Shown here: positions 4,581 through 47,100 of the stretch, piece by piece
Layout: each line of letters opens with the position of its first letter
Numbering within the stretch: the stretch's first letter is position 1
Source of the DNA: Nageia nagi
Lineage: Eukaryota; Plantae; Pinophyta
Direction: 5' to 3'
Assembly: GCA_050084985.1 (NCBI GenBank)
Contig: JBITNC010000001.1
Coordinates: 158,410,001-158,474,000, forward strand
DNA: 64,000 nucleotides
The notes under the pieces: generated by a model
The model's input: only the letters and a program-made list of their open reading frames with translations
The model's database searches: none
What the model was told of the DNA's origin: nothing
Position numbers and translations under genes: made by a program

Positions 4581-4599
4581 CAGCTTCCTCTTTCCTGGC

Positions 4600-6644: not shown

Positions 6645-6678
6645 ACACAGTCTGGACGGATCCACGCTCTGATACCAC

Positions 6679-7722: not shown

Positions 7723-8400
7723 TAGATTTTGATGGTCAATAATAGAACCTAGTTGAGTTTATCCAACTCATTAAACACATACTAATGCCTTATACCCCAT
7801 GAAAAATCTCTCTTTCAAGGCATATAAGGTAGGGGTATGTGAGAAAGATGTTACAACGCATGTGTTGAATAATACATGAAACATAAGTTAGTATGGGTTA
7901 TCTGAGGTTGATAGCTTGTATGTTATATTCATGTTCCATCTAGTCCCTTGGGCCTTAAGGATCAAATTACACCAAGAAACAAAATTGAACTGAAATCAAT
8001 AATCCAAATTTAAATGATAGAAATGCTCCTTCTATTCATCTGACCAAAGGTTATCTTGAAATTATGAAGCGGCTATTCCAATTCATTAAAGTAGGTTATA
8101 TTAAAGGAGTCTAAAATGTACATCGTACAATAAGATGAAAAAGAACATCATGGACAATATGGAATGTAATAATGACATCTGAAAAGCTTTTGTTTTAATA
8201 CATGATCTAATATGCAATCTTCGAAATTTGTGCTCAATTCATCAAATAAATGTGATTGTACTTTTAATGAGTATTAGATACGACATTTTTGTATTTTTAG
8301 ATTTTTCACGATGCTCTTCTATGCACTTCTAGTAAATCATTCATTAATATAGATGTTAGATGAGCGTACAATGTACATCATACATCTAGAAGATAGTATA

Positions 8401-11400: not shown

Positions 11401-12095
11401 CTCAAGAACCGTGGCATAGAGCTTGGCCAAGGTGTGACCAGTCATGATCGTGAGGTAATTGCTTGGTTTGATGAGATATTCTAAATTTGTTTCTTGTTTC
11501 ATGATATCAAATTAGGAATTTCATCCAAACTCTAGTTTTTCCCACATTCTTCCACCATGTCCATTTGATTGTTCACAATTAGTCGCACTTCTTGCTCCTC
11601 TTTGTAACAATTCGAACAATAGTTGTTTGTTTGCAAAGTTGGATGAATTGGATGAAATCCCTAATTGATTCAAAAAGGATAAACTCTTTAGACAATGCTT
11701 TGTCGTGGTAATCAGTTTGGTATCTGACCAAGTATTCGTTTCCATTTCACAAGTGTAGTATCTCATTTTACAGTATTACCTTCTCTTTTCTTTACTCTTT
11801 CATTTTCTTTAAAACTCATAGCAACCTTCGAACTATTGCACAATAAACACCTCGATCTCTATAAAAATGTGTGTTAACAGTTACTACCTCTAGTACACCA
11901 CTTAGCTGATTCCCAAACAAAATCTACACAATTTAAGCTTGTATTAACAACACGAGTTGCCTATAAAAACCTTGGGGTATCAATCCTTACAAGAGGAGTT
12001 TAGTAACGCGTTCTCGCATAAATGCTGGGTTGCTTTCCCATCTTGATCATTGTCAAGGTGATCACCGAGTAAGAGGAAAGATTCCCTTCCCAACA
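8401..12095 (+). repeat. 5' LTR, rearranged (about 845-bp deletion plus LINE replacement)
   Basis: Aligns to 15744-19087 except that the equivalent of about 16644-17488 is missing (join at CAAATT microhomology near 9300) and about 17889-18468 is replaced by the LINE fragment 9709-11468. Confidence 0.88.
9709..11468 (-). mobile_element. RTE-X-like non-LTR retrotransposon fragment (RT through C-terminal CCHC), truncated at both ends
   Basis: PSNYLTIM...QAGF...HRTTDH...CCFVDFRKAFD...GVKQGCPLSPTLFGLYID...LLFVDD...NLSKTK...YGVEIWG...ICRL...EDHFIFRC; GC-richer than its surroundings; no tail or TSD. Clade assignment is from motif style only. Confidence 0.85.
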
Positions 12096-12100
12096 TAGAT

Positions 12101-12117
12101 TGGCGCTAGAAGGAGGG
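12101..12117 (+). promoter_or_regulatory. Primer-binding site, tRNA-Asn
   Basis: TGGCGCTAGAAGGAGGG, 5 nt downstream of the LTR end, is the reverse complement of the plant tRNA-Asn 3' end (CCCTCCTTCTAGCG-CCA). Confidence 0.85.
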
Positions 12118-12239
12118 CCTTGACTTGTTTTTTGTGTTCTAATTTATTGTTGTCTCTTGAATTTTCTTTTCTTTTTCTTTTTGTTTTTATTTTGCTACTT
12201 TAACACTTCAAGCTGGGACCTAGAAAAGAGAACAAATTT

Positions 12240-15006
12240 GTTTATAGTACAAGGGCAAATAGAGCAATAGAAGAGGCGACTGAAAGGGAGTTGAATAAAG
12301 AGATAGATCAAACTCTAAGAAGCCCAGTATCCGAATTCAACTTAGAAGGGTCCAATACTCCACCAACGCAACGTACTTCCCTAAGAGCCATTGTTACACC
12401 ACTGGGTTTTACTCCTAGTATCTCACAACCCCAATCGCACAACCTATTATACCATCAATTCAACCACCAATTGTTCAATTTACTAATTAGAATTAAAACA
12501 ATCCAATGGCGACAACTCCAGCATGGTTGGTGGGAAGACCTATCAATAGTGCAGGATAGGTGCATTAATGCCCAAAGAATCCGGATAGATTTTTGTCGAA
12601 GTTTATTCATGATGGACCAGTAACGGTGGAAGAGCATATTCACATGTACAAAGATAGCATAGGATGATTAGATGTGGTTCATGAAGATGTGGCTTGCCGC
12701 ATGTTTCCAAATACTCTAGATAGCATGGCTACTATGTGGTATGCTAGTTTACCTGAAGGATTGATAACTTCATGGACACAACTCGAATAATCATTTTTGA
12801 ATCAGTTCATTGTGCCCATCGATCCAAGTGTTCTATCCAATCAACTTGCACTGACTAAACATCAACCCCATGAGCCGCTTCGAAACTTCAACTAGAGATT
12901 TCAAAAAGTATACTCCAAACTCATGGATCCTTACAAAGTTGATGCACCATGTGCGTTCCAAATGTACTTAAGATCACTCGATGGTATGGCAACGACTTTC
13001 CTCAAGAGAGATGGTATAGTTACGACACTACCTATTGCCTATTCAGCGGCATTAAAGATTGAACAAGAGCTCAATGAACAAGGAGTCGACGAAATGAATG
13101 TGACCCCATGCAATCCATTCATCCATCCAATACCCATACTCAAAATTTGAGCATTGAAGGTGTGGTAAATCCTCAGACAATCCCACCCCAACCAATGAAA
13201 TTAGCGATTGATACAAGTTTAGCTATCAATCCAATTGCTCCTTTCTAGCCTACATTCCTAAATCCGACTAAACAAGTTGCGAATCCTAATGTTGACACCG
13301 AAATAGTTTGGGACAACAATGGAAAATTGAAGATCTTGTGAGGTTGGTACAGAATATGAGCAATGATATGACTCAAATGAAAATGAATTATAGTCATGGT
13401 AATCAAAATCAATAGAATGATAGAAGTCAAAATGAACAAGATCATAATCAAAATTATCAAGGTGATAGACCCAGGAATTTCAACTTTCCGAGGACAAATA
13501 GAACATGGAACATTGGTCCAAATAACGACGGTGTTCCAAATCCGATTGTCAACAATAATAATCATGTGAACAATGTTGATTTATCAAGTATAGGCTTATC
13601 CAATTGGTGTAGAGTTCACTCTACAACCTCACATGGAGAATCCAAATGTCTTGAATTCAATGCAACAATGAACGTTTTTCAACAAGAGATACAAAATATG
13701 GACATGACATCGAATGATGAGCCAAGTGCATCTCGGGGCAAACTCCAATCCCGTTCTAGTAATCAAGATGTCATACAAAGATGAAGATGTCCAGGAAGAA
13801 GAAACACCTGATGATGGAGTATACGTTGTAGGAACAATCTTTGAAGAAGTCTATCCAACGCACCAACAAACACCACAGGGCCAACATGCCTATAATTTTC
13901 GGTCAAGGGTAAGCAAAGAAAATGCAACTTCATCCAGACCTTCGAATAACATACAGATTCCGCTTGATCAAACTTCACTAGTTAATCCTCCACCACCACA
14001 TGTGCAACAACCTTTGCAAGTACCTGTGCAACATGTACAACCATTTGTACAAATCTCTTGTCAAGCACACAATCAGCAAGGAGAGACACAGTTCAAACTC
14101 AAACAGGTGATAGAGGAGAGAACAAAATCAGTACCACTGTCATACAATATCGTTGAAGATATAAAGAAACAAAGAGCAAATATGACGATGTATGATTCCT
14201 TAGATGATGAGATCCAACAAAAGCTGTTGCTCAATGAAATCAAGCAAAGAAGCATTAATGGATACCCAAGCCTTTGGATATAAAAACGATATCAATTCAA
14301 AAGAAGGGAGAAGAGATTAATGCCCCTTCATTTCTACTAATCTTTAGAATAGAAGGCAAGAACTTGCATAATTGCTTGGTAGATTTTGGAGAGTAGGGAA
14401 ACGCTATGCATATTGGAGTGGAAAAAGTTTAAAATGCCACTTTCAGATAGCCCTACAAAGGTCACTTAGTTAGACCAATCTGAGGTAAAGGTATTAGGAA
14501 TGTTGAAAGACGTGCACATACAAATAGCATTAGAACCACATATTCAACAAAGAGTAAATGTCTAGGTAGTGGAAATACAGGACACCTATGGGATGTTGCT
14601 TAGTAGAAAATGGTCAAGAGATATGAATGGAAATATCTGCATGGATTGGTCTCACATGTGGCTTCCATGGAGAGGCATTGCAAACCAGATAAGGGTCGAA
14701 AGAGAACCACGACTCAAACAAACGATTACAAAATATAATAATTTGAATGAGGTCCAATTCCTTGAAGTGGGAATGGGTGTCTATGAGTCAAATGAAGTCC
14801 ATCATCTGAATATGAAGCCAACAAAGAAGAAAGTCTTTGCAATCAGGCCTACAAAAGCCAAATCTAGAGCATACAATCCCCAAAGCACTGCAATGAAGGA
14901 ACGATGGACAATCAAGGTCAATGATCAAGCATCCAAATGCTTCGTGGGTAAGGATTCACCATTACCATATAATGGTGAACATTCTAAACCTTTCTTTCCA
15001 CCTTGA
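12240..15006 (+). pseudogene. Disrupted gag-protease of the Athila/OTA element
   Basis: Gag (VHEDVACRMFPNTL...WYASLPEG...WTQLE), Cys/His knuckle WCRVHSTTSHGESKC, protease LHNCLVDFG and downstream YGMLLSRKW...MDWSHMWLPW; many stops. Confidence 0.8.
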
Positions 15007-15743
15007 ACAAAGTTGAAAGTTGCAGTGTTGTACATAGTGTAAATAGAATAGCTTGTCCTGCTCTTGTTTTCAATTGCAGATATAATTAGCTTAGGTATCT
15101 TAACGAAATCAACAAGATTCTCAAGCATTCAAGCTCATTGATTGACATTGGTTTGCTACCAATTGGTGTAAGTCCGAATATAAGCTACCCTCATCATAGC
15201 ATACCAAGCTTAGGAACTAGTTGTTCCGACCCAGAGACTACAATTGGAACATACACTCTAGATGATACTAACAAATTATCTGATGTAATAGGTACTGACA
15301 TTGGTACCCTACCAATCGGTGCAAGTTCGAAAAACAGAGGGTCCTCAGAATCATAAATGATAGACAAAGAACATAATATAACAGTACAATCAATAAGCCT
15401 CATGCTTGTTGATGAAGTACGGACATAGGACTTAAGCCTTAAGCTTTTGTCCAATTGTGGTGAGTGATGAGAAAGACGAGGATATTAAGAATGATGTGAC
15501 TGCATCATTTGTATCCGTCTTGTGAGCTGGGAATGGTGGCCACAGTTATTTCTTTGGAACCTAGAGTACAATGTAGGTGTCCCGATGGCTACTCGATAAG
15601 CTAGTGAGAGTTCACTCACTTTAACGTAAATTGACAATACAATCGTTAGTGAATGCTAACATTGGATCATTCTCCAATGAACGACGCATATCACTGTGTA
15701 TCCTTTTTATATACTAACTTTGTTTTTGTTTTTATTTTGTAAT

Positions 15744-18700
15744 TGTTGTGCCCACACAACACACCCCAAAATACAAAATTTTGGGGCCTTATTTTTGCAA
15801 ATCTGGAGATCCACTTTCTAAGCAAGACAGTGAAGGGAGTTGATCAGGATGACAGGGCATTGATCATGAGTGTTCTGAAGCAACTGATAGCGTGATACTA
15901 CTAAAGATGGTGCACAAAGGTTATTCACAGGACACTGTGAGACAGTTCATTATGCCAGATAATCAATTCTGGAGCTTTCATGACTCCTAACTCTAAGGGA
16001 TGGTGTTCCTAAGTAGTTGGCATAGTTTTTGAAGATTGGCCAAGTGCAAAATGGGAAATTTAGTACCTTTGCTCTTGGAAATGGCCTAGAGTTGATTCAA
16101 ATGACCTTAAAGATGAGCCAAGTGCAAAATGGGAAATTAAGTACCTTTGCCCTTGGAGCTGATGATGGATCAATTGATCAAGTTGATACCCCCAGTGGTG
16201 AATGCAAAATCATTTTAATTGGTAAGTTTGATGACACAGAGTTATGGACAATCCAGTTTGAGGCACATTTGTGCTTGGAACTTTTTAGTTCCGATCAAAG
16301 ATGCTCCTCAGAGGACAAAAAGAAGAGTTAGAGGTCTATGCTTCCAAGGAGTGTGGAGTTGAGCCTACATGGAAAAATGAGTTTTTTCCACACAAATTGG
16401 AATGAAAATGTTAGCATACCCTTTTGAAGACCTTGCAAAATGACTAAGGTTTACTCTTGGAAAATTTGAAAAATGGACAAAATTATTGAGCTAATAGGTA
16501 GGCGCATGTTTTCCAACTTTTCCAAACCTTGTTAAGCATGTCAAGACATGGTAAATCAGTGCCTAGGATTTGGAGCCCCCAAATTGAGTCAAATTTGCAA
16601 TTTTTGAGCATGAGGAGATAGGTTGTACAATTCTAAACAAAATTGGTCTTTCAAGTTTGCTAATTGGACAAGTTTTGCTCCCTCAAAACATGTAAAAGCA
16701 GAAAAAATAGAAAAGAGGAATTGAGGGTGGCCAATGAGAATTCACCAAAAATTCTCAAAATTTATTTTTGCAATTTTAAGACATGAGCATTAAGATATGA
16801 CAAATTTATGAGCATTCACCTTAAAAAAATTGAAAAAATGCCAAAATTATTTATTTTGGAGCAAGGCGCACGTTTTCGAACTTTTCCCAAGTTTGCCAAG
16901 CATGTCAAGACATGAAAAACCTGCGCCTAGGAAAAGGAGCCTCCAATTTTGTCCATAATTGAAAATTTTAATCATAGGCACAGGGGAAATCCAATTTTGC
17001 ACAAGTTTGGTCTTTTAATTTTTGGAAAAAAAGAGATTTGCTCCTCCAAAATCATGGAAAATGGAGAGCCAATAGGAATGCTTGAAAATTTTCCAAAATT
17101 TTCAAAATTGAAGAGATAGGTAGGGTGGGGATCATAAAATTACACACCTTTGCTCTTGAAATTATTGAAAAAACTCAAAAAAACACCCTCCCGAAAGGTA
17201 GGCGCAAGTTTACCATGTTTTCCAACCCTTGACAACCTTGCCAAGCATGCCAACACTTAGAAAACCTGCGCCTAGCATTCTAGGGGCCTAAAAGTGTTTA
17301 AAATCCAAATTTTTGAGCTCCATGGGGTGCAAAATTCAATTCTACACCATTTTGGTCTTTGAAATGTGCAATTTGGATAAGAAAAACTCCTTCAAACCAT
17401 GGATTTGTCCTCCAAAATGGGGAAAATTAGAAGAACAGAAAAAATAGGAAACTCCAAATGAGCAAAATTTTGAGTCAAGATCCAAAATTTTAGAAATCAA
17501 CTTTGATAATTGATTTAAATACCCATTTCCATTGTGAACAATTTGGCTTTTGAAAAAAGAGCAAAATTATGCCCATAATGCCTAGGCGCTCATTTTCCAA
17601 GTTTTCCAAGTCTTGAGACTCTTGACAATTTGCCAAGTTTGTCCAAAACATCTTATGGAGCCTCCAAGATGCCCCCTCAAGAGAAAATCTTCAAATTCAA
17701 CGCCTAAAAGCTCCAAACCCTCTCAAAACTTGCCAAATACCTAATAATTCATGAGATGAAATCCACATTTTTAAATTTTTCTGAAATTGACCCCCCATCT
17801 TTTTCGAAAAATATAGACCAAAAAATCGACTTTTTTCGAAAAATGTTCTCAAAATTCCTTGAAAATTTACCAAAATGATCACATCAAAGGCAAATCCAGA
17901 TTGAAAGAAATAAGGAGCTCAAAAGATTAACGAATGGATCTAGAATGATGATTTGAAGCTCCAAATTTTGCCAAATTGATGCAAAATACCTCAAAATCCA
18001 TGCCAAAGGGCATCATTTTTTGTAAATATTTTATTTTCAAGCATATTTTATTGGGATGAGTATTGTTCTCCCACTAAATGACATTGCAATCTTAATTTAG
18101 CATTCAAATTAGCATTTTTTTAGTATTTTAGGATTTCTTCAGAAAAATCCCTCAAAAATACCTATAAATAAGTTGCATGGGGTCTCATTTTCACCAGAGC
18201 TCATTTTGTGAAAAAAGTGAAATTTTTGTAAAAGAGGAGCAAATTGATGTATTCTCGCATAACTCTTGTATAAGCTATATACAAAGTGATTAAGGTGTAG
18301 ATTGAGCTTGATTTGTCGTTTGTGGTGTTGTGAAATGATCCATAAGGGCTATCTTTGTTGGTTTGACACTTTCGCATCCTTCCTTTGAAAACTTATGAGT
18401 TTTAGGGAAAATATCATTGCATTTGAAACTAATCTTTGATAGTTGCTTGGTTCATAGCATGCATGTTAGATGAGGTATTTTGAGTTTGTTTCGTATTTCA
18501 TGACATCAAACTAGGAATTTCATCCAAACTCTAGTTCTTCCCATGTTCTTCCAACACATTCATTTGATTGTTCGCAATCAGTTGCACTTCTTGCTCCTTT
18601 TTGTAACAGTTCGAACAATAGTTGTTTGTTTACAAGTTGGATGAATTGGATGAAATCCTCTAAACCGATTCGAAAAGGATAAACGCTTTAGACAATGCTT

Positions 18701-19087
18701 TGTCGTGGTAATCAATTTGGTATATGACCACTTATTTGTTTCCGTTTCACAAGTGTAGTCTCTCATTTTATAGTATTACCTTTTCTTTTCTTTACTTTTT
18801 CATTTTCTTTAAGACTCATAGCAACTTCCGAACTATTGCACAACAAACACCTCGATTCCTATATAAATGTGTGTTAACAGTTACTACCTCTACTACACCA
18901 CTCAACTGATTCCCTAACAAGAATTTAAGCTTGTATTAACGACACAAGTTGCTTATAGAAACCTTGGGGTATCAGTCCTTACAAGAGGAGTTCAGTAATA
19001 CGTTCTCGCATAAATGTTGGGTAGCTTTCCTAATTTGATCATTTTCAAGGTGATCACCGAGTAAGAGGAAAGATTCCTTTCCCAACA
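15744..19087 (+). repeat. 3' LTR (3344 bp) with TATA box near 18163 and ~350-bp internal repeats
   Basis: TGTTG...CAACA termini; CCTATAAATA at 18161-18170; three related units of about 350 bp between roughly 16440 and 17380. Confidence 0.9.
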
Positions 19088-26456: not shown

Positions 26457-28160
26457 TTTTTTCAAAAGGGAATTATATTTATATTACAGGTGGGACAAAT
26501 AATTAACATAATATGCATACAAACCCTCTGAAGCAATGGCTCAGTAATCAATTATCCTAGAACATTCGTTTTACGACTCTTCTTTTTCTCCTTTCCTACT
26601 ATGCCTACTTCTGCATGTTTTGCTTGTTCCCCATTTGCTTTATGTGCTAGTAGTTCTACTTGTATTTCACGAGTCTCTATATTTTTTGTTAGCGCTATAT
26701 ATTTGGATGTAACTGTATATCCGATCAACATTGTAGAATTCCTTTTCGCTTTATGGTCTGATGCTGCTGCTCGTATATTTAGCGCTGTAGGTTTGATTGA
26801 TAGTACATGTTCTCTTATTGCTGCATTCCCACTTGTTGCTGCTTTTTCAGTTGGTACTGTATGCACTGCTGATGCTGAAGATTTGGTTGGTGCTGCCCGT
26901 CCTTTGGTGTTGCATGTTCTTCTAGCATTGCAAGATCAGTTCCTGTCAGGTTATCCCACTGCATATTCTATTAATGCTTCATGTTCACATTTTGCATGTT
27001 CCCTTGGTGTTGCAACATGTTTTGGCATTGCCTGTACTGTAATTGCTGTAGATTTGGATGGTGCTACTTGCCTTTCTGGCATTGCTACATTCTCTTCTAT
27101 CACAGCAATTTCATTTTGCTTTGGGTGTTCAGCTGATTATGTGCTTTTTCATAACACTGCATTTCCACTTGTTGCTGCATTTTCCACTTGATGCTGGTCC
27201 TTGTTCTGAAGGTTGCTTGGTTGGCATATCTTTAATACTCCCTCCCTTAGTTGGGTTCCTCTATCGGCGAGCTCGTTTGCTTTCTTATTTAGATTCCTGA
27301 GGATGTGTTCAAATTGGACATGGTCAAATTTTAAGCTAATTTACTTCACTTACTGATGTACTCTTTGGAGGCAAATGGATTTTGGTTTGGTTTTGTTGTT
27401 CAGAATGTTAATAAACAGTTGAGAATCCCCCCTCTCAATAAGCTATTTGATTTCCTTCTCTATTTCCAACTCCATTCCTGTCTTAAGGGCATGGAATTCT
27501 GCAAAATTGTTAGAACTTAGTATTATAAGCAGTCAACTGAAATTAAAACCATACCTCCTTGCCTTCTTTGTTGAGGATTGTTTCCCTTGCACTTGAACTG
27601 CTGGGGTTGCTTTTGGAGGCTCCATCAAACTTCAAAAGATGATTGGAGCTGTCTTTTGTAGAGGAAGCGGTTTTGAGACTTTTCTTGGATATTGCATGGG
27701 TAAGCTTTGATGGAATCCCTAACTAGACATTGGATTTTAACCTTGGTTTTATCTATGTAATGACTTATGAGTTTCTTCTTTGAAGATTTTCCTGTTCCTA
27801 CTGTTCCATATTCCCCAGAAAAAGTTTCTGGGAGTAATTTTCTGAAGTTGGAGCATGGATTTATCATTTTTTATTTCTACAGGAAGGGAGGGATTTCTAG
27901 GAGAAATGAACTTAGATGTTGAAGGCAGCATAGGGGCTTCACTCCAGCCAAGAAGACCTTCATGAAGCTTGGTCCATACTGCTTTAGAAAAAAGGATGAC
28001 AATACTAAATGGGTACTTTCTTCCTGGTTGTAGCATAAGGTGCAGATAGATGAGCGGCCAGCAAATCCTCTTTTTTTTTTAAAGATTATCTGGAGTAAGC
28101 TGATGATTGTGGCAAGCAGTCCAGAGAAACTAGTCGACCTTTGGAATTGAATAAGGAATC
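26457..28160 (-). mobile_element. L1 LINE, 3' part (zf-RVT, RNase H, Gln-rich tail, short A tail)
   Basis: IPKVD*FLWTACHN...KRGFAG...CTLCYNQEES.HL, AEFHAL...IEGDS...HILRNLNKKANELAD; putative A-rich end near 26457. Continuous with 34822-37630 once 28161-34821 is removed. Confidence 0.85.
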
Positions 28161-28340
28161 TGTTGTGCCTACACAACACCGCCCCAAATTTTTTTGCATT
28201 TCGAGGACCGTCAGGAAACATAAAAAAAAAAAGATTGCATGAAACCTATCTAAAAGATGCATACCTTTTGGAGTATATTGGGAACATGTTCAGTTTGCAT
28301 TTTCTCAGCAGTAGTGTCATTTTTTATGCACTTTTCTCCT

Positions 28341-29880
28341 TTCGCATGTTTTCCATAGAGTGCTTTTGCACCACCTTTCAGCCATGCGACCATACAGCCT
28401 TGTCTTTGTTGTCTACATTATCTCCCTTTTTTGTATTTCACCCACCTTGCATCTTGTTTGTCATCATGTTGTCAAAAAATGCAGGAAAAGGGCATGTTTT
28501 CAGCCTATCGCATGTTTTCGAGGGAGTCCTTTTTGCACCCCCTGGAGAAGGTGCGACCAGGCTGGGTTGCATCTCATACTTAGCATTTTTTGTCCCACTT
28601 TGATGTCGCATGCATTGGAGTGAGTCCTTTTGCACTCCTCAGGAACCATGCAACCAGGAATTTCAGACTTAGCATCATTTTTGAAGATGTCGCATGCATT
28701 GGAGTGAGTCCTTTTGCACTCCTCAGGAACCATGCGACCAGGAACTTCACGCTTAGCATTGTTTGAAGCCTCAAAAGGCTGTCGCATGCATTTCATCAAG
28801 TCCTTTTGCACTACTCGCAAAGGGTGCGATCAGCTTGAAGAACACTTAGCCAAATTTCGGAGCCTCTAGGCTTGTTGCAAGGATGGAGATGAGTCCTTTT
28901 AACTCATCCAAAACCATGCGACCAGGGAAAACAGAAGGAAATAAGCCAAGTGTTGGACGTTGGTGACAAATGGAAGCCCATGCATTGGACCTCATCCTGC
29001 ACCTATCCCATGGTGACACATGCTCCACCTAGAAGGCTATGAAAGGGAAGTCAACCCCCTTCATTTCAGTTTGCAAAGTTGGAGAGGGCTAGAGCGTGGG
29101 GAGATAGGAGCAAAAACACCCCTTCTTGGACGTTCGACCAAGGACATCCTACACCTTTTTCGAAGTTTTGTTCAAGATTTAGACCTTGGGAAGCGTGCCA
29201 AGAGCTGGGCGCAAGGATTCAAGCATGTGCTCTAAGCACCCATCCAAAAGGATGCGACGAGGGAGTTAAGAGCTCAAGTATGTTGGAAATTGGCTAAGTC
29301 CCCTGGTCCCACTTCCTAGTCGCACCATTCTTATCTGGTCCTTTTGCACCGTCCACCATGCATGCGACCTTGTTTGTAAGCTTTCTATTGGACCTTTTTA
29401 GCAAGTTGGTAAGAGAGTAACACCTGGCCCAAGGGCAAATCTATAAATATCGTCCTCTCCTTGAGCATTTCATACCTCATTTTCATCCCTCTTCTTAGTC
29501 GCATCATTTTCCATACATGCTTAAGCATCCATCCCAAAACATGCGACCAAGGAAGAAACATTAAAAGACATTGCACTCATTTCAAGGCTTGGTCGCATCA
29601 CTTTTCATGCATGCTCAAGCACCCACTTCAGAACGTACGACCAAGAGAGAAGGGACATTTAGGGACGTTGTACATTCAGTTAAGCCTCTTTTGGCTAAGG
29701 CATTTCAAATCCACCCTTGAACCTAGTCGCATTATTTTTCATGCATGCTTGAGGCACTCATTCAAAACCATGTGACCAACTTTGGAGTGAAGAATTTTGT
29801 TCAGGAAATTGACTAAGTGTCCTAGGCTTAATCGCACACTTTCTTGGCTGTGCTTTTGCACTCATTCATAAATGTGCACC
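28341..29880. repeat. Array of 12 spaced tripartite palindromes (49-51 bp each)
   Basis: Units start at 28341, 28507, 28605, 28689, 28781, 28874, 29208, 29319, 29498, 29592, 29726 and 29831; consensus GTCGCA-N13-GT(G/C)CTTWWGCAC-N13-TGCGAC. Confidence 0.9.
29442..29449 (+). promoter_or_regulatory. TATA box inside the solo LTR, upstream of the accessory ORF
   Basis: CTATAAATA followed by CTCATTTTCA, the same context as the TATA at about 18163 in the related LTR. Confidence 0.6.
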
Positions 29881-29930
29881 TAGATTAGTCATACATTTGG
29901 AGTTGAGGAAGGAGTTGGGTAGTGTCCTCC

Positions 29931-32900
29931 ATGGCTTCAAGCACCTAAGTACCCTCTTTGAAGGCCAGGAAGACCCAAAGCTAGCTATTTGAGAGGCATG
30001 TGACTAAAAACCAGATGACTCGACTTTTGAAAGGGAGTTTGATAGAATTTCGGCTGAAGAGCAGACTTGAGCTCCTTGAGGCCAAATTTAAGGGAAAATA
30101 TATCTTTGTTGGTGACACTGATTGGGGTAACTTGGACCCAATTATGACCTTGGCCTTTATAACCTCTATCCGCAAGGAGGACTTGTTTGAGGAACTTATC
30201 CACGTGCAGCTTGTTCAATGCCGCCATGATATCGTTTGCAGTACCTTTTCTTGACTTGTGCAGTGAAGTGGCAAAGAAGTGTGAGTTCAGCAAGAGAGTG
30301 CTACGGGATACAGAGGGCAATGTAATCATGGACTTCACCTCTATTGGTATTGAAGCAGCTTTTGGCTGGAAACTTTATGGGGATGACTATACATTGGTCC
30401 ATTCGGAGGAGTTTCATGACTCCACTTCTCGATCTGGAGACTATGTTAGACCTTGGTTGCTTGAGAATTTCAGAACCTTTAGGGGCAAGTTGATCAGTGC
30501 ACGAAGAGAAGAATTTCTATCGGTTGTGGCAAAATTGATCACCTTATTATCAAGAGTAACTGGTCAAGAGAATGATGCCAAGTACCGGAGGGGGTTCACA
30601 GGTTTTATGGCTGCAATTAGTTTGGGGAGGCCCATTTGGTGGGTAGGGGTTATCAGTGATGCCTTGCGCTACTAGTTGTCCTTTTTCAGCTCCTCGAAGA
30701 GATTTTACATGAATTCTTACCTAGTGTACCTATTACTGCATGATTAGGTTAGATCCAAGGAGCTAGCTAATGAGAGGTACTTGGGGGAGAAGAGTGCTCT
30801 CGTGTGGAGGGCATACCAGAAATGGTGGTGCCAGAATAAATTTGAGTATTTTTATGGAAAAACTTATGCTTGGGAATATGATATCTATAAGGATATCAAG
30901 GGAGAGTTTGTGGTGAAGAGGATTTATGATGCTGCAATCTAGGCTATTCGTGTGCATGCAGACTTTTTTCTGCAAGACGTTGACTTCACCTACATCATAG
31001 TTTATGGCTTGGAGGAGTAGCCCATGCTCCTGCCCAGGTATGTCAGCGACAGGCTGATCCTCATGGAGTTTGCCAGGCAGCTCTTGTACCTAAAGGAGGA
31101 GTTTTGGAAGAAGAAAAATGCCACCACCAACTTGGCTATTTCTATATCTAGATATGTGTGCCAGACTTAGGTGGAGGCAACACACATGCGGGAGGAGCTA
31201 TAGCAGTATAACTTTTTCAGGGAAGTTGCTACTAGGAACTATGATCTCGAGGGGATGATTGCCCATTTCTATGACATTGCTTTTCATTGGCCCATTCCAT
31301 TTCCACACAAGTCTTTGGGAGGTGAAGAAAGGTATAGGAATGTGCAGGACGAAGGGGAAATTGCGTGCATCAAAGCTCATTTGAGTAAAAAGAAGGCTTC
31401 CCTTCAGGCAGAAAAGCCTCCTTAGAGGTCTCAGACTACCAAACCCCGATCTAAGGAGGCCATTTTGAAGATTAAATCTCCTGCCCACACAACATCCTCA
31501 CCAAAAGACAGGCCCTTGCTTTCTACAGGAAAAAGGCAAGAGGCCCCAAGAGAGCCCCTTCCAGGGCCCAACAAGCGTAGTGTGTTGGAAGCTGACCTTA
31601 AAGATGCTGGGTATTATGCTCTTCCTTCAGATGTGTTGGACGATGTGGTAAACACCGCATGTGGTAGTGACTCCCCCACGAAAGCAATTCCTTCTAGATC
31701 GACCCATTCTCCTGGACCAAGAGAGAAAGTTCCCCCTTTACAGTAAAGTTCTAGCAACTCCAAGACCTCTTCCTCTTTTTCCGATGAAGAAGCTGATGAA
31801 AACCTTGACTGTACGGCTAGAGATTTTGTGGAAGAATTAGAGAGCCATAGTCAGAGAGAAGAAGAAGAGGAAGATGATGCCAACGCTGCCCATTCACCTC
31901 AGCAAGAAGACGTAGCCATTGGTGCTTCAGCACCCGATGAGATGGAAGTGGAAACCATCCTGGAAGATGAGATAGTGGATGTAGGCACTTATGATGATGA
32001 CATCTAGATACTTGGCCAAAAGTGCTCTAGAGAGGTGGTTGCATCCAAATCCTCTCTCGTCGAACCCAGAAAAAGTTCTCCCTCACATAAACCCTCTACC
32101 AAGAGGAGTCATGATAAATCTCCCTAGCTTTGAAGTATAGGCATATCTCTATGCAGTAGTGGAGGAGATGAAGAGGACGAAGGAGAGATAGAAGAACAGA
32201 AGAAGAAGAGAAGGTAGGAAGAGCATCAGGGCAAGGAGATGGTGGTAGTTCCAACTACCCTAGCAAAAGAGGCCAAGAAAGTTGATAAAGGAAGATTGCT
32301 GGTTCAAAGGTTTCCCCCTTGACCAACGATCAAACATCTAGATCTTGACCTAGATGCATGCCTTAGAGCCCTCAACATGAGTACGGCTCACGATGAAGAT
32401 ATAGACCAGGACTTGTGGTTTGGGGACGAGGAAGAACTTTTAGATGGGGAGAAAATTTAGAGGGTGGACACTTTTGTCTCCACCTCTTGAAAGGAGATCT
32501 CCATCAGCCATTGCTACTCCAAGGAGAAGCATCCTCAAAGGGCCGAGGACTATGTTATTGAAACTTACAAGATGCCAGTCCAACTGGGGTTAACGGCCAG
32601 GAAACACATTGTTACCCAGAATGTTGCAGTCATGGAACAGGAAGGCTATGAAGCCAAAAGGGAAGTGAAGAAATTAAAGAAGGAACTCACAACCAGTCGG
32701 AAAATCATAAAGGAGTTCCTGAAAATTAGCACCGCTCCCTTACATTTGCAGAAACAAACTTCCTTCCATGAGGGGTGGGAACTCATGGAGCAGCTCAAGA
32801 ACGAGATGATGGAGACCGTCGAGAGATTGTCTTCACGCATTTACAAGCTTCTAGCCGAGGGTGTTGAGATCAGGAATCTCAGAGCTCAGATTACTACTCA

Positions 32901-33480
32901 CCTCCGCCAGTTGGATAGTTACCTACCCAACGCCTCCCACCTGCAATACACGTCGATAACCTCGAGAAATTGGTCTCTAACCATGAGTTCACCTATCACC
33001 ACGATTGGTTGAGCCACGCACTTGAGAAGTGCAATGTTGTCCTCAAAGTAAGGATCCCCTTGTGAAAGGAGGTAGAGGAGCAGATGAGTGAGTATCTTTA
33101 TCAGCTCAAGTTCCAAGGGGAGGATAATAATGTTTGAGAGAAGGAAGCAGTATTGGCAAAGGCCCAAAATCTAATCCAGGAGCATCTTGAGGTCAAGGAT
33201 CTAAACTTGCTGAAGGCAAGACTTCCTATCGTGCATGAGAGGTAGATGGTCATCTGGAGGTACCGGATGCAGGCCAAAATCAAGAAGATTGAGGATTACT
33301 TCCGGCAAAATGATAGTACCATTGGTATGATCTCTAGGGGCGTGCAGTGGCGTTCTTGGAGGAGACCATCGAGTCCTATGGTCTCACCAGCAAGGAGTGT
33401 AATTCCGCCCATACCGAATCAAATTTGGCCTAGATCTGATTCAACTGCAGACTTCCCTTGCGGTACCTTTTTTCATGTTT
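29931..33480 (+). pseudogene. Accessory retrotransposon protein (about 1,150 codons, disrupted): N-terminal globular domain, acidic/basic disordered linker, C-terminal coiled coil
   Basis: Colinear ORF fragments at 30000..30254, 30187..30675 (continuing ...ISDALRY*L...RFYMNSYLVYLL), 31465..31746, an acidic tract with a KKKRR motif at about 31780-32250, and the coiled-coil-like 32572..33012; first ATG at 29931. Confidence 0.75.
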
Positions 33481-34821
33481 AATGCATACAGGTTGCTTGT
33501 CAGACTTTACTTTGATTTGATTGGTGTAGGGATGAGGTTTTGCTCTTGCCAGGTCAAATCTGTCAGACTCATTTATGACTTTGACCAGTGCAAGGATAAG
33601 GTTTGCCTTCCGCTGGTTTTGATGTTAGACCTTTTCAGTCTATTTATTGCATATCTGATTTTTTGTTGGATAGAATAGATGTAGAGTAGATGCATTGCGG
33701 TTGTGGCATTTATATTTTGTCAGCTTTAGATGCCACTTACATAGTTTTGTGGGATGATATCTGATTTTGTATCGGTATGTGTGTTGCGTGTGTGCACACC
33801 ATATCAGATTTGATGCCTTTAGGGCATCATTTCTAGTGGCCAATTTATACCCCATTTGGGCCATTTAGAAAGGGATTTGACATACGGGATTTTTGTATGA
33901 GGAATTTTGACATAAAGAGTTTATGCATATGATCTTTTGTACTATTTTTGCATTGGACTTTTGCACGTAATGAAAGCATCATATATTGGAGTTCTTGCAT
34001 TTTGAGATTGAGGCTATTGAGTTCATTTGTACAATCATTTTGAGCCTTTGCATGTCATAAGATTCACATTCCATTGCATAGAAGATTGCTGCATAAGGGG
34101 TTTTATGCATGTTCTATTATTGAAAATCAATATGAATGTGTTTTTGTTTAAAGGAATAAAATCATAAAGTTATACTGTGAGGAATATCATTTGTGGGATT
34201 ATGCATATTTGAATGGTTGTTTCTATGAATTGCATATTGATTTTGTGAAAGAGTCTGATCCTTCTTTGCATAGTTTGCACGCAAGTGGATATATTCTGAG
34301 GTCTACAACTTGTCTTTATATCATTCGGTTAGTTTACTGTACTTATGCCCTCACTCCATCTTTACCCTTCCCATTGAGTTTTCCATAAAGACCCTATAGC
34401 TTCTTGCTCTCCTTTGGTAGTTATTTGAGCATATTTGCTATTTGCTGCACGGCTTGATAGTGAGTGTATTGACCTTAATGAATCTGAAGACGACCTGCCG
34501 AAACATTGTATCCTTGGTGACGTCTTCATAGGTCTTTTCCTTTCCTCGCATTCCCTTGCATTTATCCTGATGTTTTTCCCTGCATTTGTGATCTTTCTTT
34601 GCTTTTATTCACATTGGCAGTCTTTCCTCATTAAGGAAAGGAATCCCGATGCGAGTTTCCTTTGTATACGGTTAACAACATGCATCTTTGACTCTAAAGC
34701 CATCAAGACCATATTCCATGTGAGCGCTTGGGGTAACCAATCCTTTCAGGTGGGAACAAGTAACGCTGTTTCCTCCAAGTCTTGTGCATGTTTTGGGCGA
34801 GGAAAGAAATACATATCAACG

Positions 34822-37630
34822 AAATCCATGTCAAATTCCAAGTGATGTTACCTACAAGAGTAGAATCCATTTTGGACTTGTATTCCTTCATTACTGTATA
34901 AATTCCATCTCCATTGGAAGATCCCCATATGATTACATCTTTGTTTCCAGCATAAGATGGCAGTCTTTCACTCAATTGAGATTTAACCATCTGCCAATGA
35001 GGCTATAAATGACTAGGAAGATCAAGTTTTCTTTTTTCAACTTCTGATTGTGCATGATGGAATTGAGAGTTTTAAGGTTGTTATCCTTTAGCCACTTTTA
35101 TAGTGGAGTTTCTATTTGCAGTCTTTAATTTCCCAGTATCTTGTGAGAGACGGAAACTTCTCAACCAGAGATGGGGTTCCATGATAGTTCTTCTGCAATT
35201 ATGTGTTTGCCTTTTGAATCCCTTTCCAAATTTAAAATTTCTTTAGAACTTTTGGATTAAAAGAGGTCTCTAAGCCAGTTTTCCTAGTGCAGTATTTGTG
35301 CACCAATTTTAGCACCCCCCATTTAGAGGCTGGGTGATCATTTCCCAAACCAATTTTGCTTTCAAAGCCATACTTTGTTTACTTATTGCTCATAGAAATC
35401 TTGTTATTATTTTCTCCATCTCATTAAGAAAGGAATTTGGTGTATGGATAATAGAACATTGTTAAATAGGTAAAGCACTGATGACAGCTTTGATTAGGGT
35501 CATTCTTCCATGGTGTTTGAGCTGGACATTGGACCATCCTTCAATTCTTTTCTTCTTTTTTTTCAATAATCTCATTACATTGATTACTTTTAATTCTGCT
35601 CAAGTCGATATAAATTCCTGGATATGTGAAAGTGGCATTAGTCTTGCCTTGACAACCCAATATTCACTCTTATCTCTTTGACTTTTCTATTATTTCTGCT
35701 AGAAAAATAGATCATAGACTTGCTGTAGTTTATCCTGATTCCTGTTGCTTTCTGATATGTTCTGAGAACCATTTTGATTCTTATGGCAACCATTTTTGTG
35801 GCTTTACTCAATAGGATTGGATCATTTGCAAACTGGGCATTATTTTATCTTTGAACCTTTTCATGGATGGGAAGTTCTGGTAGCTTTTTAAAGCCTTTTT
35901 GTTGTTCGAGTAGTCTTGGTAAACCTTGTATTACCTGAATGAATTACTATGGGGAAGGGTACAACCTTGTCTAACTTCTCTTGAAGCCTGGAAGTATGAT
36001 GTAGGTCTGCCATTAAGCAGGGGAGCAATCCATGGTCTTGAAATACATGCTGCTATCTATTTTTTAACTGTTCATGGAATGCCACTTTATTTACAATTTT
36101 CAAGATCATGTCATGGTCTATTCTGTCAAAAGCATTTGCCATATCTACTTTGAGGGCCTTATCATTAGGTTTGTCCTCCCTGCTAGGGTGCATTGCTTCT
36201 TGAACTAATATGATTCCTTCATAAATTCTTTAGCCTTTCATGAACCCAGCTTGGTTGAGAGGAATAATTGAATATACCAACAGAAGCATTCTGTTTTTGG
36301 ATATTATTTTGTATGATGTATTGCAAAGCAATATTGGGCTGAATCTTTGGAATTAATGGGCATGTTTTTCTTTAGGAATCAGGCCAAAAAGTTGGAGTTG
36401 ATTTCCTCATCTATTTGCTGTTTCGTTCTGCTTTCTTCAACCATCTCGAGAAGATCCTTCTTGATTATGTGCCAAAAATCAAGTTAAAAAATTACATTGA
36501 ATCTGTCAGGCCCTGGTAATTTATCGTGTTGCATGGAATATACCACTCCTTTGAACTCCTTCATAATGATAGATTGGATCAATTTTTCATTGTCCTCTTG
36601 CCTCAGAGAACTGTGAATTAGATCTAGAAGTGCTCGCTGACTGATTGCTTTAATTTCTCCATCTTTGCCGAACAGATCTTAGAAGTCGATAATCCGTTCT
36701 TTCATTTTTTGTACATTGGTTGATATTGTCCCATCTTCCATTGTTATCGTGTTCATATTTCTGCGCTGTGCTTTCTTATGAAAGAATTTGTGTTTTTGGT
36801 GCCTTGTTTAAGCCATATCATATCATTTAGTTTTGCTTTCAGTATGGAGTAGGATGTATCCTTGGATTTGTTTTTGATCCGTTTTCTGATCTGCTGCTTG
36901 AAAGTTTGTAGCCTTTTTTATCCACTTTTGGGCATAAGTACCATTTTCCCAGCTGTCGTCCCATACTTGCTGAACTAACTCTTTGAAATCAGCCTCCATT
37001 AACCAAACGGAGTTATATTTGAAGGGGATGGCACCCAATTGGCTTGTTGTTCGTATCCCAAAAGTACCGGTTGACTGTCCATTAGATAGTATTTCTTGAG
37101 AGATTTTGTTTCTATGATCTAATAGAATATCATCAACGAGAAATCAGTCCACTCTTTCAGCAAAAACGTTTGAGCATAATCTTTTATGAGCTCAAGTGTA
37201 TTTGCCCCTTGTCAGTTGTACATCCATTAGATTGTGCTGCTGAATAAGGTCTTCTACTAGTTCTCTATTTGGGTCTCTTATGTGACCCCCACCTTTTTTT
37301 ATTCTGTGGGTTTCAAAACTAATTTGAAATCTCCTCCAATTACCCAATTTTCTTGCTTTGAGTTGGAATACACATTAAGGAATGCCCTCCAACACCAGCC
37401 TTTTTTCGCTAGGTTGTTAGGAGCATAGATGTTGGTGGTGGTGTATACTTGAACAGTAGGGGCTTTAAGCACTGTTGTTAGCCGGTGTTTTGTGGCCTCT
37501 ACTGAAATTCACTTCCATTCTGTTTCCCAGGCTGTTACTATTCCTGATCTCCCATGGAAAACCCATTGTTCTGTTTGATTCTTTCCAGATCTAGTTTGGT
37601 TTCTTGGATCAGCAACATATCTGTTATTTT
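34822..37630 (-). mobile_element. L1 LINE, 5' part of ORF2 (endonuclease + RT), decayed
   Basis: DMLLIQETK, NIYAPN, WVIGGDF, PFKYNSVWL, PGPD.F, RPILLCN..YKII, QFAND and IWGSSNGDGIYTV motifs on the minus strand. Confidence 0.85.
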
Positions 37631-38529
37631 CAAGTGATGTGAGATGTGCATGCAAAACACATTGCAGCAAGAAGGATTATGCAAGTTGTCCTTGGGAGCA
37701 AAGTTGATGCCAAAAATGTGGTATGGAGAAATCAGTTGCCTCATTTTGAAATCATTGACACACAATGGTAAAATCAAGGGTGAACTTTTTTGACCGTACT
37801 GTGAAGAAGATGAATTTTTTTTTTGTGGTGGGAATTTGACTTCTATGCACTTGACAGACTCAGTGAATATATGTATCTTCCAGAATAGTTTGTTGATTTT
37901 CATCTATCTGGAAATTAGAGGATTGATGTTCAACGGAATCTGTAATTTGTAAAGAGCTAAGTTGCTGCAATACTTTAGAAAGCCTGAGATGCTTATTTTA
38001 TTACTTTTTTATTATGATATTGTTCTATGCTTTCCTTATTGACTTCTTATTTTGATATTTGCCTTCATGTGTTTCAAGATTTTTATTTGTATCAAAGCCC
38101 GAGTCTTGGCTTGTGGTGAACTTTGGACAAGCTATTATTAAGATTATAGTTCCATTGGATTTTTTAGGAATAATATAAGATGAATAAAGACAACCTATTT
38201 TCCGTATCCATTCTTGATTTGTTTATTCAACTTTTGCTCCTGCTCCTATGTTATTCTACATCTTTTCCTTTTGCTGTTGGTTGAAGTTCTGTATGTGTGG
38301 TACTTTAATTTTCCTCGATACTTTGGTATAATTATGGAATGCTTCTGGAGAATGATTACTTTTCATTGCAATTATGTTAAAGGTGGAGAAAATCATTGTC
38401 TTTGAACTTGTGATAAAGTATGCTAAAATTCTACAAGAAGCTAGCTTTTCTTGTATGATGTGTTGATGTGCATAAATGTAGAATAGAGAAAGGTGCTGAT
38501 GTTAAGTAGTGCTATATCGCTTCAAAATT

Positions 38530-38640: not shown

Positions 38641-39007
38641 ATGGGTCGTAAACTGAGAAGTTTATACATAAATCCAAAAAAATTTGGTCAAAATCGTCCC
38701 CCTTGTACAACGGAAATGGTATCATTTCTGTCTTGCTTGGCATCAAATACAAATGATGATGCTAAATGTGTCAAGGAAAAGAACCTTTTGCTGACATGCG
38801 TTGATGCACAGGTTTGTCCATAATCCATTTCTCAAAGCCATTTTTCTTCAATTGATTGTTCAGGTCTGACATTAAACAATGTCTGTGAGTTCCTGTATTA
38901 ATTTCTCGTCTTACTTCAAGTTCTTCCATGTGCAACAGGGTGGGAAGAAGAAGAAGCCCTTTGCTACTCTTAACTACCACCTGCAGAGACTAAGCAAAGG
39001 AAGATAA
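38641..39007 (+). CDS. mS37: CHCH (twin CX9C) domain protein, probable mitochondrial ribosomal protein mS37 (Mrp10-like); join(38641..38811,38939..39007), 79 aa
   Basis: Exon 1 encodes MGRKLRSLYINPKKFG...C-X9-C...C-X9-C...DAQ and ends CAG|GTTTGT. The 127-nt intron ends TGCAACAG. Exon 2 encodes GGKKKKPFATLNYHLQRLSKGR*, containing the NYHLQRL motif I recall from the plant family. Frame is intact. Confidence 0.88.
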
Positions 39008-39829
39008 TCTGATATACATTACTTGTGGACCTCTAAAAATAAAATTCATGTTTTGGTAGGCCCTTGTGATAGCCTTTCCTAGCCACCATGGCTGGAAAAT
39101 ATTTCTTCTATGCTGAGAATATACTCTATTTGGATCCTAAGTGGTTTGGACTTTGAAGGTGGATGTCATAACATTGGAGAAATCAATATGCCTTTCTGCA
39201 ATGTGAAGTCTAGGAAATAATGGATGAACTTGAGGTTCAAATTGTGATTATTTAGCTCTTGACTAACTGTGAAACACCTTTTGCAACATGTTACAGTACT
39301 CTGCTCAAGGTCCATTGCGGAAGCCTACTCTTTGCCTTTGTGAATTGAGATTAATTTCTGTCAAAGGGCCTATTGACTTTTCTTTGAACAGGTTCTTTAA
39401 TGCATAGTTTCATGTCCTAATACTTCGTCCACCCTATTAGCCAGGATTATTATTGCCCCTTCTCTTACTTGGTAGTTATTATTAAATTTCTTCCAATTGT
39501 AGGATTCAGTAGCTATTATTGTGTATTGAAAGAGATACAAGTTCGTTCCAAAGCAAAATGGGTCAATCTCAAGCGTGCAAATAATGGCAATTTTGGCTAT
39601 ATCAATTGTACATTCCTTGTTTGAAGTTTTCGAACATTGTTGAGTTGTTTTCTTAAGAAAATAAAATGCTTTTTTGTTGTTTTCAAAACTTTAGGTTTAT
39701 TTGAAAAATTATTACAATGAAATTTGTAGAATATTACAAAACCTTAAAAAATAAGCAACACAACATAAAATAAGAGGAACACAACATAATTAAGGTTGGT
39801 CTATTTCTAGGTTCCTTATCCTTAATAAG

Positions 39830-44100: not shown

Positions 44101-47100
44101 TTGGACTTTTCCCTTTTCCTTTGTCTTTATAATGATTTGCCATGGTAGGATACAATGATCATTCCTACAAATTAAGATTGCTATGCCTGTTGAACCTGTT
44201 GTTGATGTGAACCATAATCAGAAGGTACATTTTGATTAGGCAACAATTGATTATAATGTGTAGTGGTGTCCATTGATTAACATTCCATTGGGATAATGAA
44301 TTTCGATAGACTTGTAAGTTAGCATTAGGAGTTGAAGAATTGCCAGTAGGAACCAACTTCCCTATATCAATGAAACTCTGAACTACCTTGTGTAAATATA
44401 TGCAATGATTGATGCTATGGACTTGAACCCTATGAAATTCACAAAACTCATCATCTTTATACCATGGTTTGGTGGCCCAACTAGGATCCCATCTAACTTC
44501 TGGTAATCTCAGCAATTTAGCATTATTTAGTTTTGAGAAAAGTTTAGATAAGGGTTCCCCCAATGGTGTGAATTTTCTTTGTTGCTTGGAAGAATGCCCC
44601 TATTCTTGATTCTAACCTTGATTCTAATTCTGTTTCTGATTATAAGTTTGATTTGGCACATTCATTTGATTTTATTGTATATTTTGCACTTGAGGTGGTG
44701 GTGGTGCTTGGAGCATTAATTGATTTACTTGGGGTTTTCCTCTGTTACTAGCACCATTATTATTAAATCCATAATCTCTATTATTTTTCTCTTTATTAAC
44801 CACCTTAATCTCACCATTTTGGACCATTACCTCTTTTATGACCTTGGCTTGATAAATGGCTTCCTCAAAGGTCCTATGCTGCTGAATTTGAAGATGTGTT
44901 GAGATTTGTTTAATGCAAATTTTACTGAATAATCTCACTGATTATTCTTAAGGCAAAGAGAATTTCATATCCATGATCAAATATCTCCATATAGCCAAAT
45001 AGTTAAATATGGACTCTTGATCAAATTGAGACAACTTCATGAGATCTATAATTGAGCTCTCTTCTTGATATTAATTGAGAAGTGTTCAAGGAAGAGATTT
45101 TCTAGTCGCTCAAAGGTGTGCAAACAATGTTCAGGCAATGAATTATACCAATTCATTGCTTGGCCACCAAGGGTTATTGGAAATGTCCTCAAAAGCAATG
45201 CATCATCATTAGCAATTTGGTAGCATGCATATTTAAAGTGCCTCAAATGCTCTTTTGGATCCTCTTGCTTTTGAATTTATCAATCTTGGGTACCTCAAAA
45301 TTTCTTGGATATGGTCTCATAGGAACCCATGGACTGATTGGTTCATTACATATCTCCCCATAGCTTATTCTAGACAACCCTGAATTTTTGGATTTTGCCT
45401 CTAATTCTTGTAACCTTATAATAATCTTATCTTCATAACTCATGTTGGGCTTATTTATGCCTATATAAGGTAGATTTGATCCACCATCAGGTGGATTTGA
45501 TCCACCATAGGGATGATTTTTTCTATCGCTTGGTTCACCTTGAGATTGAAATTGGTAGATTGATTATGGATTATTGAACAGGCTTAGTTGTCTCTCAAAA
45601 GAATGAGCATTTGGGTTATAATAATTGCCTTTCTGTACAAAAGATTTTCATTGCATATTTGGCCCATACTTTTGATGTGTATGATGATCATACACTTGTT
45701 GCATATTTTGAGAATGATATTGTGCACTAGTATCATAATCATATTGTGAATTGTTTCCATAAGCTTTTTGCATATTTGGTCCTTGAATTTGTTGAGATCC
45801 TTGAGAAATATTCTTATTCTAATTTTGTTGCTCATTAGACACTTGATTCAAAATCATAAGATATTGCATTTGTGCAATAATTTATTTTATTGCCTCCATA
45901 GTGTTGGAATGTATAATGCATTAGTAAAGGTTTTGTAATAATCTTCTATGTAAGTTCACTAATACTTAAGGGTATCATTTGATACCTTAAGTATTTAAGT
46001 GAATATGATAATGTAACTTGTCCTACACTCCATGTCATGAGCATGCCCCTTGGGTAAAAGGATGTGCATGTCATGCTTTTGTACATTGGATAAAAGGGTG
46101 ATCCAAAGAGGGATTTTAGCCTATAAATAGAAGGCTCCCTCTTTGCGATTACACACCAATTTGTGGACTAAAGTTGTGCTAGAGGATAGTGTTTAGGAGT
46201 TGAGATTAGGAGGATTGTAAAAGAATTGTATTTGTGATTGAAGTAAAGATCTAGTTAGTGATGTACTCCTAGTTGGAGGAACCATTTACATCTTGTGTTA
46301 TCTTTGTGAGATTGCTTTATGAGTTAGTTAGATGTGTTTTGTGAGCTTTCATGAGATCTTGAAAATATAGAGTTGTTTAGTTTATAGTTCATCTCTCTCA
46401 TTTGGTATCATAGCTTGGTTGGTGTGGAAGCTCCTCTTCTTGGTTTGGAAGCTCTTTTTGTTGAGGTAAAACTAAGAGAAGGTATAATATCCTTCTTTAT
46501 TGGTTATTGTTTAAGTATTGCATTTTGATACTAACATTTTTTTTTTTTTTTGTGTTAGTTTCTTTTTTTTGAGCAAAATTTGCCTAACAAATTACAATAT
46601 TTTATTTATACTAACCTCGTATGTTGATTACTATTTTTTTAAAAAATAATAAGGGGTTATTATAAAATTATCTTGTATTTTTTAATATTGCAAAAATAAT
46701 ATTACAAAATATGCTTGCAAACTTAATTTTATATGATGCAATTTGTGAGTACTAACATTTTATTGGGTTTCTTTTAATGTTTATATTTTTTTTCTAAAAA
46801 TATTACAAAAGGTTAGTAAACAAAAAAAATCTACAATCTGCTTCAAATTAATATTCAAAAGGGGAAAGTTTTTATACAAATTTTAACCTTTTTTTACAAT
46901 ATAGATACATTTATATTAAAAAAAATGAATATTGAAGGCGGACGATTTGGCGATGGTAGTGGCATTGGCGATGGTAGCCTGGTAGCATGAACCTCTACTC
47001 TGCTACCCTATATTCACTACCCCCTATGCTCCATTGCCCTTTGCTTCATTCCCTCTTCAATGATGGCACCCCCATTCCTCCTATGTGTGGTCTCCCAGTG

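Follow-up and report, generated by a model that had tools for sequence, protein, structure and literature searches.

A 6.7-kb repeat unit of Nageia nagi, probably a Ty3/gypsy solo long terminal repeat with a decayed gene in its U3 region

The window analyzed here is a stretch of 64,000 nucleotides from Nageia nagi (contig JBITNC010000001.1, positions 158,410,001 to 158,474,000), and a repeat unit that carries a decayed accessory open reading frame (ORF) is inserted in it within an L1 element. This unit belongs to a high-copy plant repeat and has ends of the long terminal repeat (LTR) type. It is likely a Ty3/gypsy solo LTR with the accessory gene in U3, and the protein is weakly predicted to have a fold resembling VANC21. 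The solo-LTR origin and the U3 position of the gene, taken by themselves, are quite likely. The unit and its parts are as follows.

28161 to 34821, plus strand: whole unit, 6,661 bp, probably a solo LTR from a Ty3/gypsy family of non-chromovirus type
28156 to 28160, no strand: left copy of the target duplication, GAATC
34822 to 34826, no strand: right copy of the target duplication, AAATC, with one mismatch
28161 to 28189, plus strand: 5′ terminal motif common to the LTR starts at 8401 and 15744 and to nested LTR starts in the related contigs L002 and L004
28341 to 29881, no strand: array of 11 inverted pairs GTCGCAY...RTGCGAC with a spacing of 43-44 bp, candidate binding sites
29442 to 29448, plus strand: canonical TATA box about 490 bp upstream of the ORF, putative accessory-gene promoter
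29931 to 33482, plus strand: decayed accessory ORF, about 1,150-1,180 codons, with at least 2 frame breaks
33483 to 34821, plus strand: non-coding 3′ part, probably the end of U3, R and U5; collinear with L002 and more weakly with L004 and L007
33841 to 33849, plus strand: degenerate TATA-like sequence lying 981 bp from the unit end, putative genomic-RNA promoter, with the U3/R border probably just after it

Results

Contig depth, a rough measure, was obtained from 4 of 24 listed public runs in each analysis (X1, X2, X4 and X8, or X1, X2, X4 and X7). Contigs from four runs covered the unit end to end and left the two outermost flank bins empty, and the depth jumped sharply at 28161 in all four runs (140-base stretch). 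These results showed the unit to be a single member of a high-copy repeat, with correctly placed ends. It starts with TGTTG at 28161 and finishes with CAACG at 34817-34821, one base off the CAACA of its relatives and of the LTRs ending at 12095 and 19087. Termini of the TG...CA type are common to the unit and true LTRs, and a solo LTR is also expected to be enclosed by a duplication of 4-6 bp. The 5-bp duplication with one mismatch described in the earlier note was found at both flanks, a match at four of five positions for which the chance, at any one given site, is about 0.016. Excision had been said to restore the frame of the host L1, and the minus-strand frame is indeed continuous across the empty site, where it reads WNLT/WIPYSIPKV (the slash marks the junction). 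In agreement with the same note, no primer binding site (PBS), no polypurine tract (PPT) next to a TG start, no gag and no pol were found inside the unit. Self-comparison of the unit showed no repeated R region at its two ends.

The accessory ORF extends from the ATG at 29931 to the TAA at 33482 in three frame pieces, with its last 50 or so codons uncertain. Reading these 3.5 kb as one decayed ORF proved correct, since 21 in-frame stops were counted as compared with 70 expected in shuffles (lowest shuffle, 50). The protein is laid out as a globular N-terminal domain (to about 31400), an acidic low-complexity middle that includes KKKRR, and a helical C-terminal third with heptad-like stretches. 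Among 1.84 billion representatives searched, 109 homologues were found at E ≤0.001, mostly short pieces; none of the 10 that were looked up had an informative name, and two were labeled "hypothetical protein". Scanning of metagenome contigs found 64 stretches that fit the pattern, eight of which encode a relative, and these corresponded to seven loci with 40-64% identity (L numbers in this text). The L003 protein still has 758 open codons. Searches for homologous proteins returned none for the domain of the window protein, four unnamed matches for the profile, and only itself for the L003 protein. No relative was detected in viral contigs, which also lacked a match to an LTR end plus PBS, or in bacterial genomes.

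The earlier note had proposed to compare dN/dS among copies. When the window ORF was compared with those of L001 and L002, pS was 0.65-0.83, with synonymous sites near or at saturation, and pN was 0.12-0.26. Third positions had changed about 2-3 times as often as first or second positions, and omega was 0.20 and 0.06 in the two computable segments. Judging from these substitution patterns, the accessory gene was once real and evolved under purifying selection. The copy in the window is dead.

The window also contains a neighboring gag-bearing element, whose PBS-like word and gag set the orientation of the LTR.

8401 to 12095, plus strand: 5′ copy of the 3.3-kb LTR, with a further insertion inside it at about 9728-11465
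12101 to 12117: PBS-like 17-mer, after the 5′ LTR copy
12566 to 13078: gag (PF03732), after the 5′ LTR copy
15744 to 19087, plus strand: ORF-less 3.3-kb LTR of the same element

The element at 8401-19087 is non-autonomous and of the gypsy type, with LTR copies 7-11% apart and a probable target duplication GTATA/ATATA; no reverse transcriptase (RT) was found in it. We take its 17-mer to match tRNA-Asn, and a stretch that is presumably protease-like gave no Pfam match. The 3.3-kb sequence is a true LTR, as its two copies lie around the PBS-like word and gag. The tract in front of the 3′ LTR is rich in T and is not a purine tract, and in one contig of run X2 a T-rich tract likewise precedes the LTR start of the family.

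The termini of the unit had been regarded as homologous to the ends of the 3.3-kb LTR. The direct likeness is thin: the 5′ tips agree at 25 of 29 bases (within-window E 0.07), only short motifs are shared at the 3′ tip, and the comparison of the whole 3′ parts gave a z of 0.2 with strict scoring and of about 3 with lenient scoring. The link is firm only by way of relatives. In L003 and L005, the left part of the 3.3-kb LTR has its counterpart ahead of the ORF. The right part aligns with the last 60 bases of the ORF in L004 and with the DNA that follows them, and L004 and L005 are 82% alike. Since a true LTR matches both sides of the ORF, the left part, the ORF and the right part together would constitute an LTR with the ORF mid-way. 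A second pair of ORF-bearing and ORF-less LTRs was found in L002. No significant remnant of the ORF protein was detected by tblastn in the 3.3-kb LTR, where the overlap is visible in the DNA alignment only.

The four related units that reach a 3′ end all have the ORF followed by 1.1-1.3 kb ending in CAACA against host DNA, and in none of them does an LTR start of the family type lie between the ORF and the 3′ end. All six complete 3′ parts, including those of the window unit and the 3.3-kb LTR, contain a TATA-like word at a distance of 924-1,031 bp from their end, and with this spacing the ORF would lie in U3. The placing of a second TATA-like site in the earlier note is thus supported, although the site is degenerate in the window copy, where the canonical TATA is the one at 29442; the copies in the public-run contigs differ from the window at 33842. 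In L003 the same arrangement is observed, with a TATA upstream of the ORF. A short palindrome (33812-33828) is located about 15 bp before the second TATA-like site, and a similar word is present near 18000 in the 3.3-kb LTR.

The ratio of contig depth between the 5′ non-coding part and the first 2.2 kb of the ORF was 0.72-1.14. Short LTRs would have at least twice the depth and would produce joints that skip the ORF, so the equal depth of the 5′ part and the ORF counts against a layout with short LTRs. There were no ORF-skipping joints among the 15 joints listed, beyond which there are 81 more. The arrangement that would have spoken against the earlier note, short LTRs with the ORF once between pol and PPT, was seen in none of the seven related contigs, none of which holds a whole element, and no pol linked to the ORF-bearing family was found. 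Indirect but convergent evidence (3′ parts, TATA spacing, matches of the 3.3-kb LTR, depth) supports the solo-LTR reading and the location of the gene in U3. The further claim that every solo LTR keeps a promoter-plus-gene cassette was too wide: sister LTRs of 2.6 and 3.3 kb are ORF-less, and the gene in the window is dead.

The ORF-less LTR in L002 keeps both TATA words, which favors losses of the ORF over an ancestral ORF-less state. In two subfamilies, the point at which ORF-less LTRs enter the shared 3′ part lies 50-90 bases ahead of the ORF stop (17947 versus L004 4696; L002 nested LTRs versus L002 19351), and this hints at a repeated route of loss or at a gain site. In L002 a 2.6-kb ORF-less LTR (13737-16320, minus strand) is nested in the 3′ part of an ORF-bearing unit, a further LTR start lies at about 3001 (minus strand), 200 bp before the ORF, and a second ORF-bearing unit ends near 18214 (minus strand). 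The target duplications of the L002 nested LTRs are not cleanly readable. L004 has a nested LTR start at 1687 (minus strand).

The array upstream of the gene is confined to non-coding DNA. Exact TGCGAC words occur 14 times in the array region, as compared with 0.5 expected, and do not occur in the ORF or the 3′ part; Tandem Repeats Finder recovered only an 84-bp doublet. Arrays are specific to subfamilies, with eight units of another word in L003 and a third word in L002, and no array was found in L005. Family-specific motif arrays in non-coding DNA, a feature of the VANC system, are thus present here.

The best structural match of the relatives of the ORF protein was VANC21 (PDB 9LNK), a weak match with 6-7% identity. 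Foldseek searches of PDB and viral models gave no match at E 0.001, and the PDB sequence search gave none. No Pfam match, including DUF1985 and DUF287, was obtained for the three window ORF pieces (E up to 1), 42 of the 109 homologues, or eight ORF pieces from the loci. In the ESM Atlas the L003 protein was close to a Transposase_32 cluster (0.81) and ATHILA (0.80), values below 0.9 that are leads only, and homologue P0025 had no usable match. The earlier note had suggested a test for a Transposase_32-like or plant mobile domain (PMD)-like fold; Pfam did not detect either, and the best match was instead to VANC21, which is linked structurally to a PMD protein. The structural match weakly predicts that the protein folds like the anti-silencing factor VANC21. 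VANC is reported to be structurally close to the host silencing factor MAIN, a PMD protein (PMC13547354), and PMD clades are reported in gypsy elements (PMC5418596); for these reasons, the accessory protein may be a distant member of the PMD fold. It is not a VANC by membership: VANC is encoded by VANDAL Mutator-like elements, whereas the unit has LTR-type ends, a 5-bp duplication and no transposase. VANC is also described as dicot-specific (PMC13547354).

The L1 element that hosts the unit continues on both sides of it.

34827 to 37900, minus strand: right part of the host L1, with RT at 35700-36598; the L1 continues left of 28160

Pfam identified RVT_1 (E 2e-6) in the host L1 0.9-1.8 kb to the right of the insertion site and recognized neither of the halves at the site, which are tentatively taken as zf-RVT. 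Just past the 5′ end of the L1, host gene exons at 38641-38811 and about 38940-39010 encode a small CX9C protein (PF16860, E 4e-8), and the L1 with its solo LTR may occupy the upstream region or the first intron of this gene. At the far end of the L1, a low-complexity region (26532-27191) is open on both strands, with frames of 219 and 127 codons. Other LTR pairs in the window are 2515-3746 with 6651-7725 and 45900-46400 with 56163-56665. Relatives of the pair at 2515-7725 interrupt the ORF in L002 and occur as insertions next to it in L001 and L005.

Discussion

Several observations weigh against a solo LTR with the gene in U3. None of the seven related contigs holds the unit from start to end: in L001, L002 and L004 nested insertions break up the DNA upstream, elsewhere it stops at the contig end, and L005 is interrupted on both sides. 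A PBS follows the 3′ end in none of the four related units. The letters before 28161 are mixed in other copies (agreement 0.52-0.65 at 28161 and 0.43-0.46 at 34820). Depth over the 3′ part is 3-7 times that over the 5′ part, the step lying close to the ORF stop, and a purine-rich run plus TG is found just after the ORF stop at L004 4740-4780, with a degenerate version in the 3.3-kb LTR. These last two features would fit a classical layout in which the real LTR is the last 1.2-1.3 kb, the array and the ORF lie between pol and the 3′ LTR, and the unit is a deletion product or chimera that happens to start with an LTR tip. Plant accessory ORFs and tandem arrays are usually reported between pol and the 3′ LTR (PMC7264820; PMC11963269), and the whole parent element was not seen. 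ORF-less or diverged sisters sharing the 3′ part would explain the excess of depth, as would a short LTR. The L004 purine run, a single example, may be a relic PPT with an old LTR start, a reading that would point to capture of the ORF by U3 through an upstream shift of plus-strand priming. The classical layout is unlikely, because the 5′ motif is an insertion boundary in the window unit, at 8401, and in the nested insertions of L002 and L004, and because the left part with its array occurs at each end of the element 8401-19087 and is hence LTR there. The depth ratio given above points in the same direction, as does the finding that no pol precedes the ORF in L003 (within the 2.8 kb seen) or in L005.

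It is even less probable that the unit is a complete non-autonomous element, with short terminal remnants around one gene, that was copied in trans and is not a recombination product. This is the single ORF-bearing unit seen whole, and the related 3′ ends all abut host DNA, observations in favor of such an element. However, with no repeated R at its ends and no PBS or PPT inside, the unit alone would lack primer sites and strand-transfer homology for reverse transcription. There are also no terminal inverted repeats beyond TG...CA, and the 5-bp duplication is unlike that of Mutator-type elements, which is about 9 bp. Regarding the protein, sequence-specific protection or activation of its own LTR is the most likely function. 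An anti-silencing role is a possibility that we hold tentatively. It is likewise conceivable that the same architecture serves another job, such as LTR-promoter transactivator, integration chromatin tether or RNA/particle chaperone, with the arrays as ordinary enhancer repeats. The VANC21 fold match is weak and shows no function, and the resemblance of VANC to MAIN indicates that the fold serves opposite ends (PMC13547354). Tandem repeats are common in LTRs, and CpG is still depleted in the array region (observed/expected 0.43; ORF, 0.36; remainder of the window, 0.24). On the other hand, a CG-containing word that is inverted, of fixed spacing, limited to the non-coding part and specific to the subfamily fits a co-evolving sequence-specific binder, although a transactivator fits too.

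If the gene is indeed part of U3, the LTR would carry two promoters, the TATA at 29442 driving the accessory mRNA and the one about 980 bp from the end starting the genomic RNA. All the DNA from the LTR start to the second promoter would then be U3, and each new element would receive the gene at its two ends through reverse transcription. Recombination between LTRs would leave the promoter, the gene and the polyadenylation region between one target duplication, the arrangement observed for the unit in the window. The protein, acting as a dimer or multimer probably via its helical C-terminal part, would bind the spaced inverted pairs of CG-containing words upstream in its own LTR and keep the promoters of the family open against silencing. 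ORF-less sister LTRs that keep arrays could use the protein in trans. A broader scenario, which we consider rather unlikely, is that an old plant gypsy clade moved a VANC-fold anti-silencing gene and its arrayed target word into the LTR; the solo LTR would be a self-contained protector cassette escaping the main host deletion route, and ORF-less array LTRs would be its parasites.

The unit resembles ordinary plant gypsy solo LTRs in its TG...CA-type ends, 5-bp duplication and lack of an internal region, but these are non-coding and the unit carries a gene of about 3.5 kb. The sag ORF of mouse mammary tumor virus (MMTV) is much shorter than the window ORF. In MMTV, sag is reported as a gene in U3 with its own promoter (PMC9412291), and the likeness would extend to the own upstream promoter and the presence in both LTRs; MMTV is a mouse retrovirus, sag has an immune function, and a sequence relation is not expected. 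The extra ORFs described in OTA Ty3/gypsy elements are Athila ORF1 (PF03078), the plant mobile domain of Ogre and TatIII (PF10536) and Transposase_28 of Retand (PF04195) (PMC6317226; PMC4408406; PMC7264820; PMC11963269). Those of Athila, Tat, Ogre and Retand are reported in the internal region, with LTRs of up to about 5 kb (PMC6317226; PMC7264820; PMC11963269; PMC11728184). Features in common with OTA elements are a large, conserved additional ORF that combines a globular domain with a helical tail, very long LTRs, repeat arrays and the 5-bp duplication. Unlike the internal OTA ORFs, the window ORF is in sense, inside a 6.7-kb terminal unit and without a Pfam match. The gymnosperm TatIII ORF, with a plant mobile domain, is described as antisense (PMC4408406) and 3′-internal, whereas that of the window is in sense to the LTR and between LTR-homologous parts. 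VANC21 and VANC6 belong to Arabidopsis VANDAL Mutator-like DNA transposons as described in PMC5735166, but the element that hosts the gene here is probably an LTR retrotransposon, and no transposase was found in the unit. A literature search that covered few subscription papers returned no description of genes located within plant LTRs, and the supplementary element tables of PMC6317226 may list such LTRs. One plant match for "gene within the LTR", PMC1560396, concerns a gene inside the element and not inside its LTR.

The formation of solo LTRs is taken to remove all the coding capacity of an element, whereas here a promoter and a 3.5-kb gene would remain. Genes that reside in LTRs would be overlooked or wrongly placed by annotation tools that search for extra ORFs next to the polyprotein. 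The presence of a protein and its candidate target word in one unit, changing together between subfamilies, offers a direct test of the role of plant accessory ORFs. Should the link to VANC be true, retrotransposon accessory ORFs, VANC and MAIN would be one fold family. If the anti-silencing reading is true, each leftover repeat would have kept a possible counter-defense gene. If the protector-cassette reading is true, sequence-specific anti-silencing would greatly predate the dicot Mutator elements and extend well beyond them, and this could bear on why some plant genomes stay gypsy-rich.
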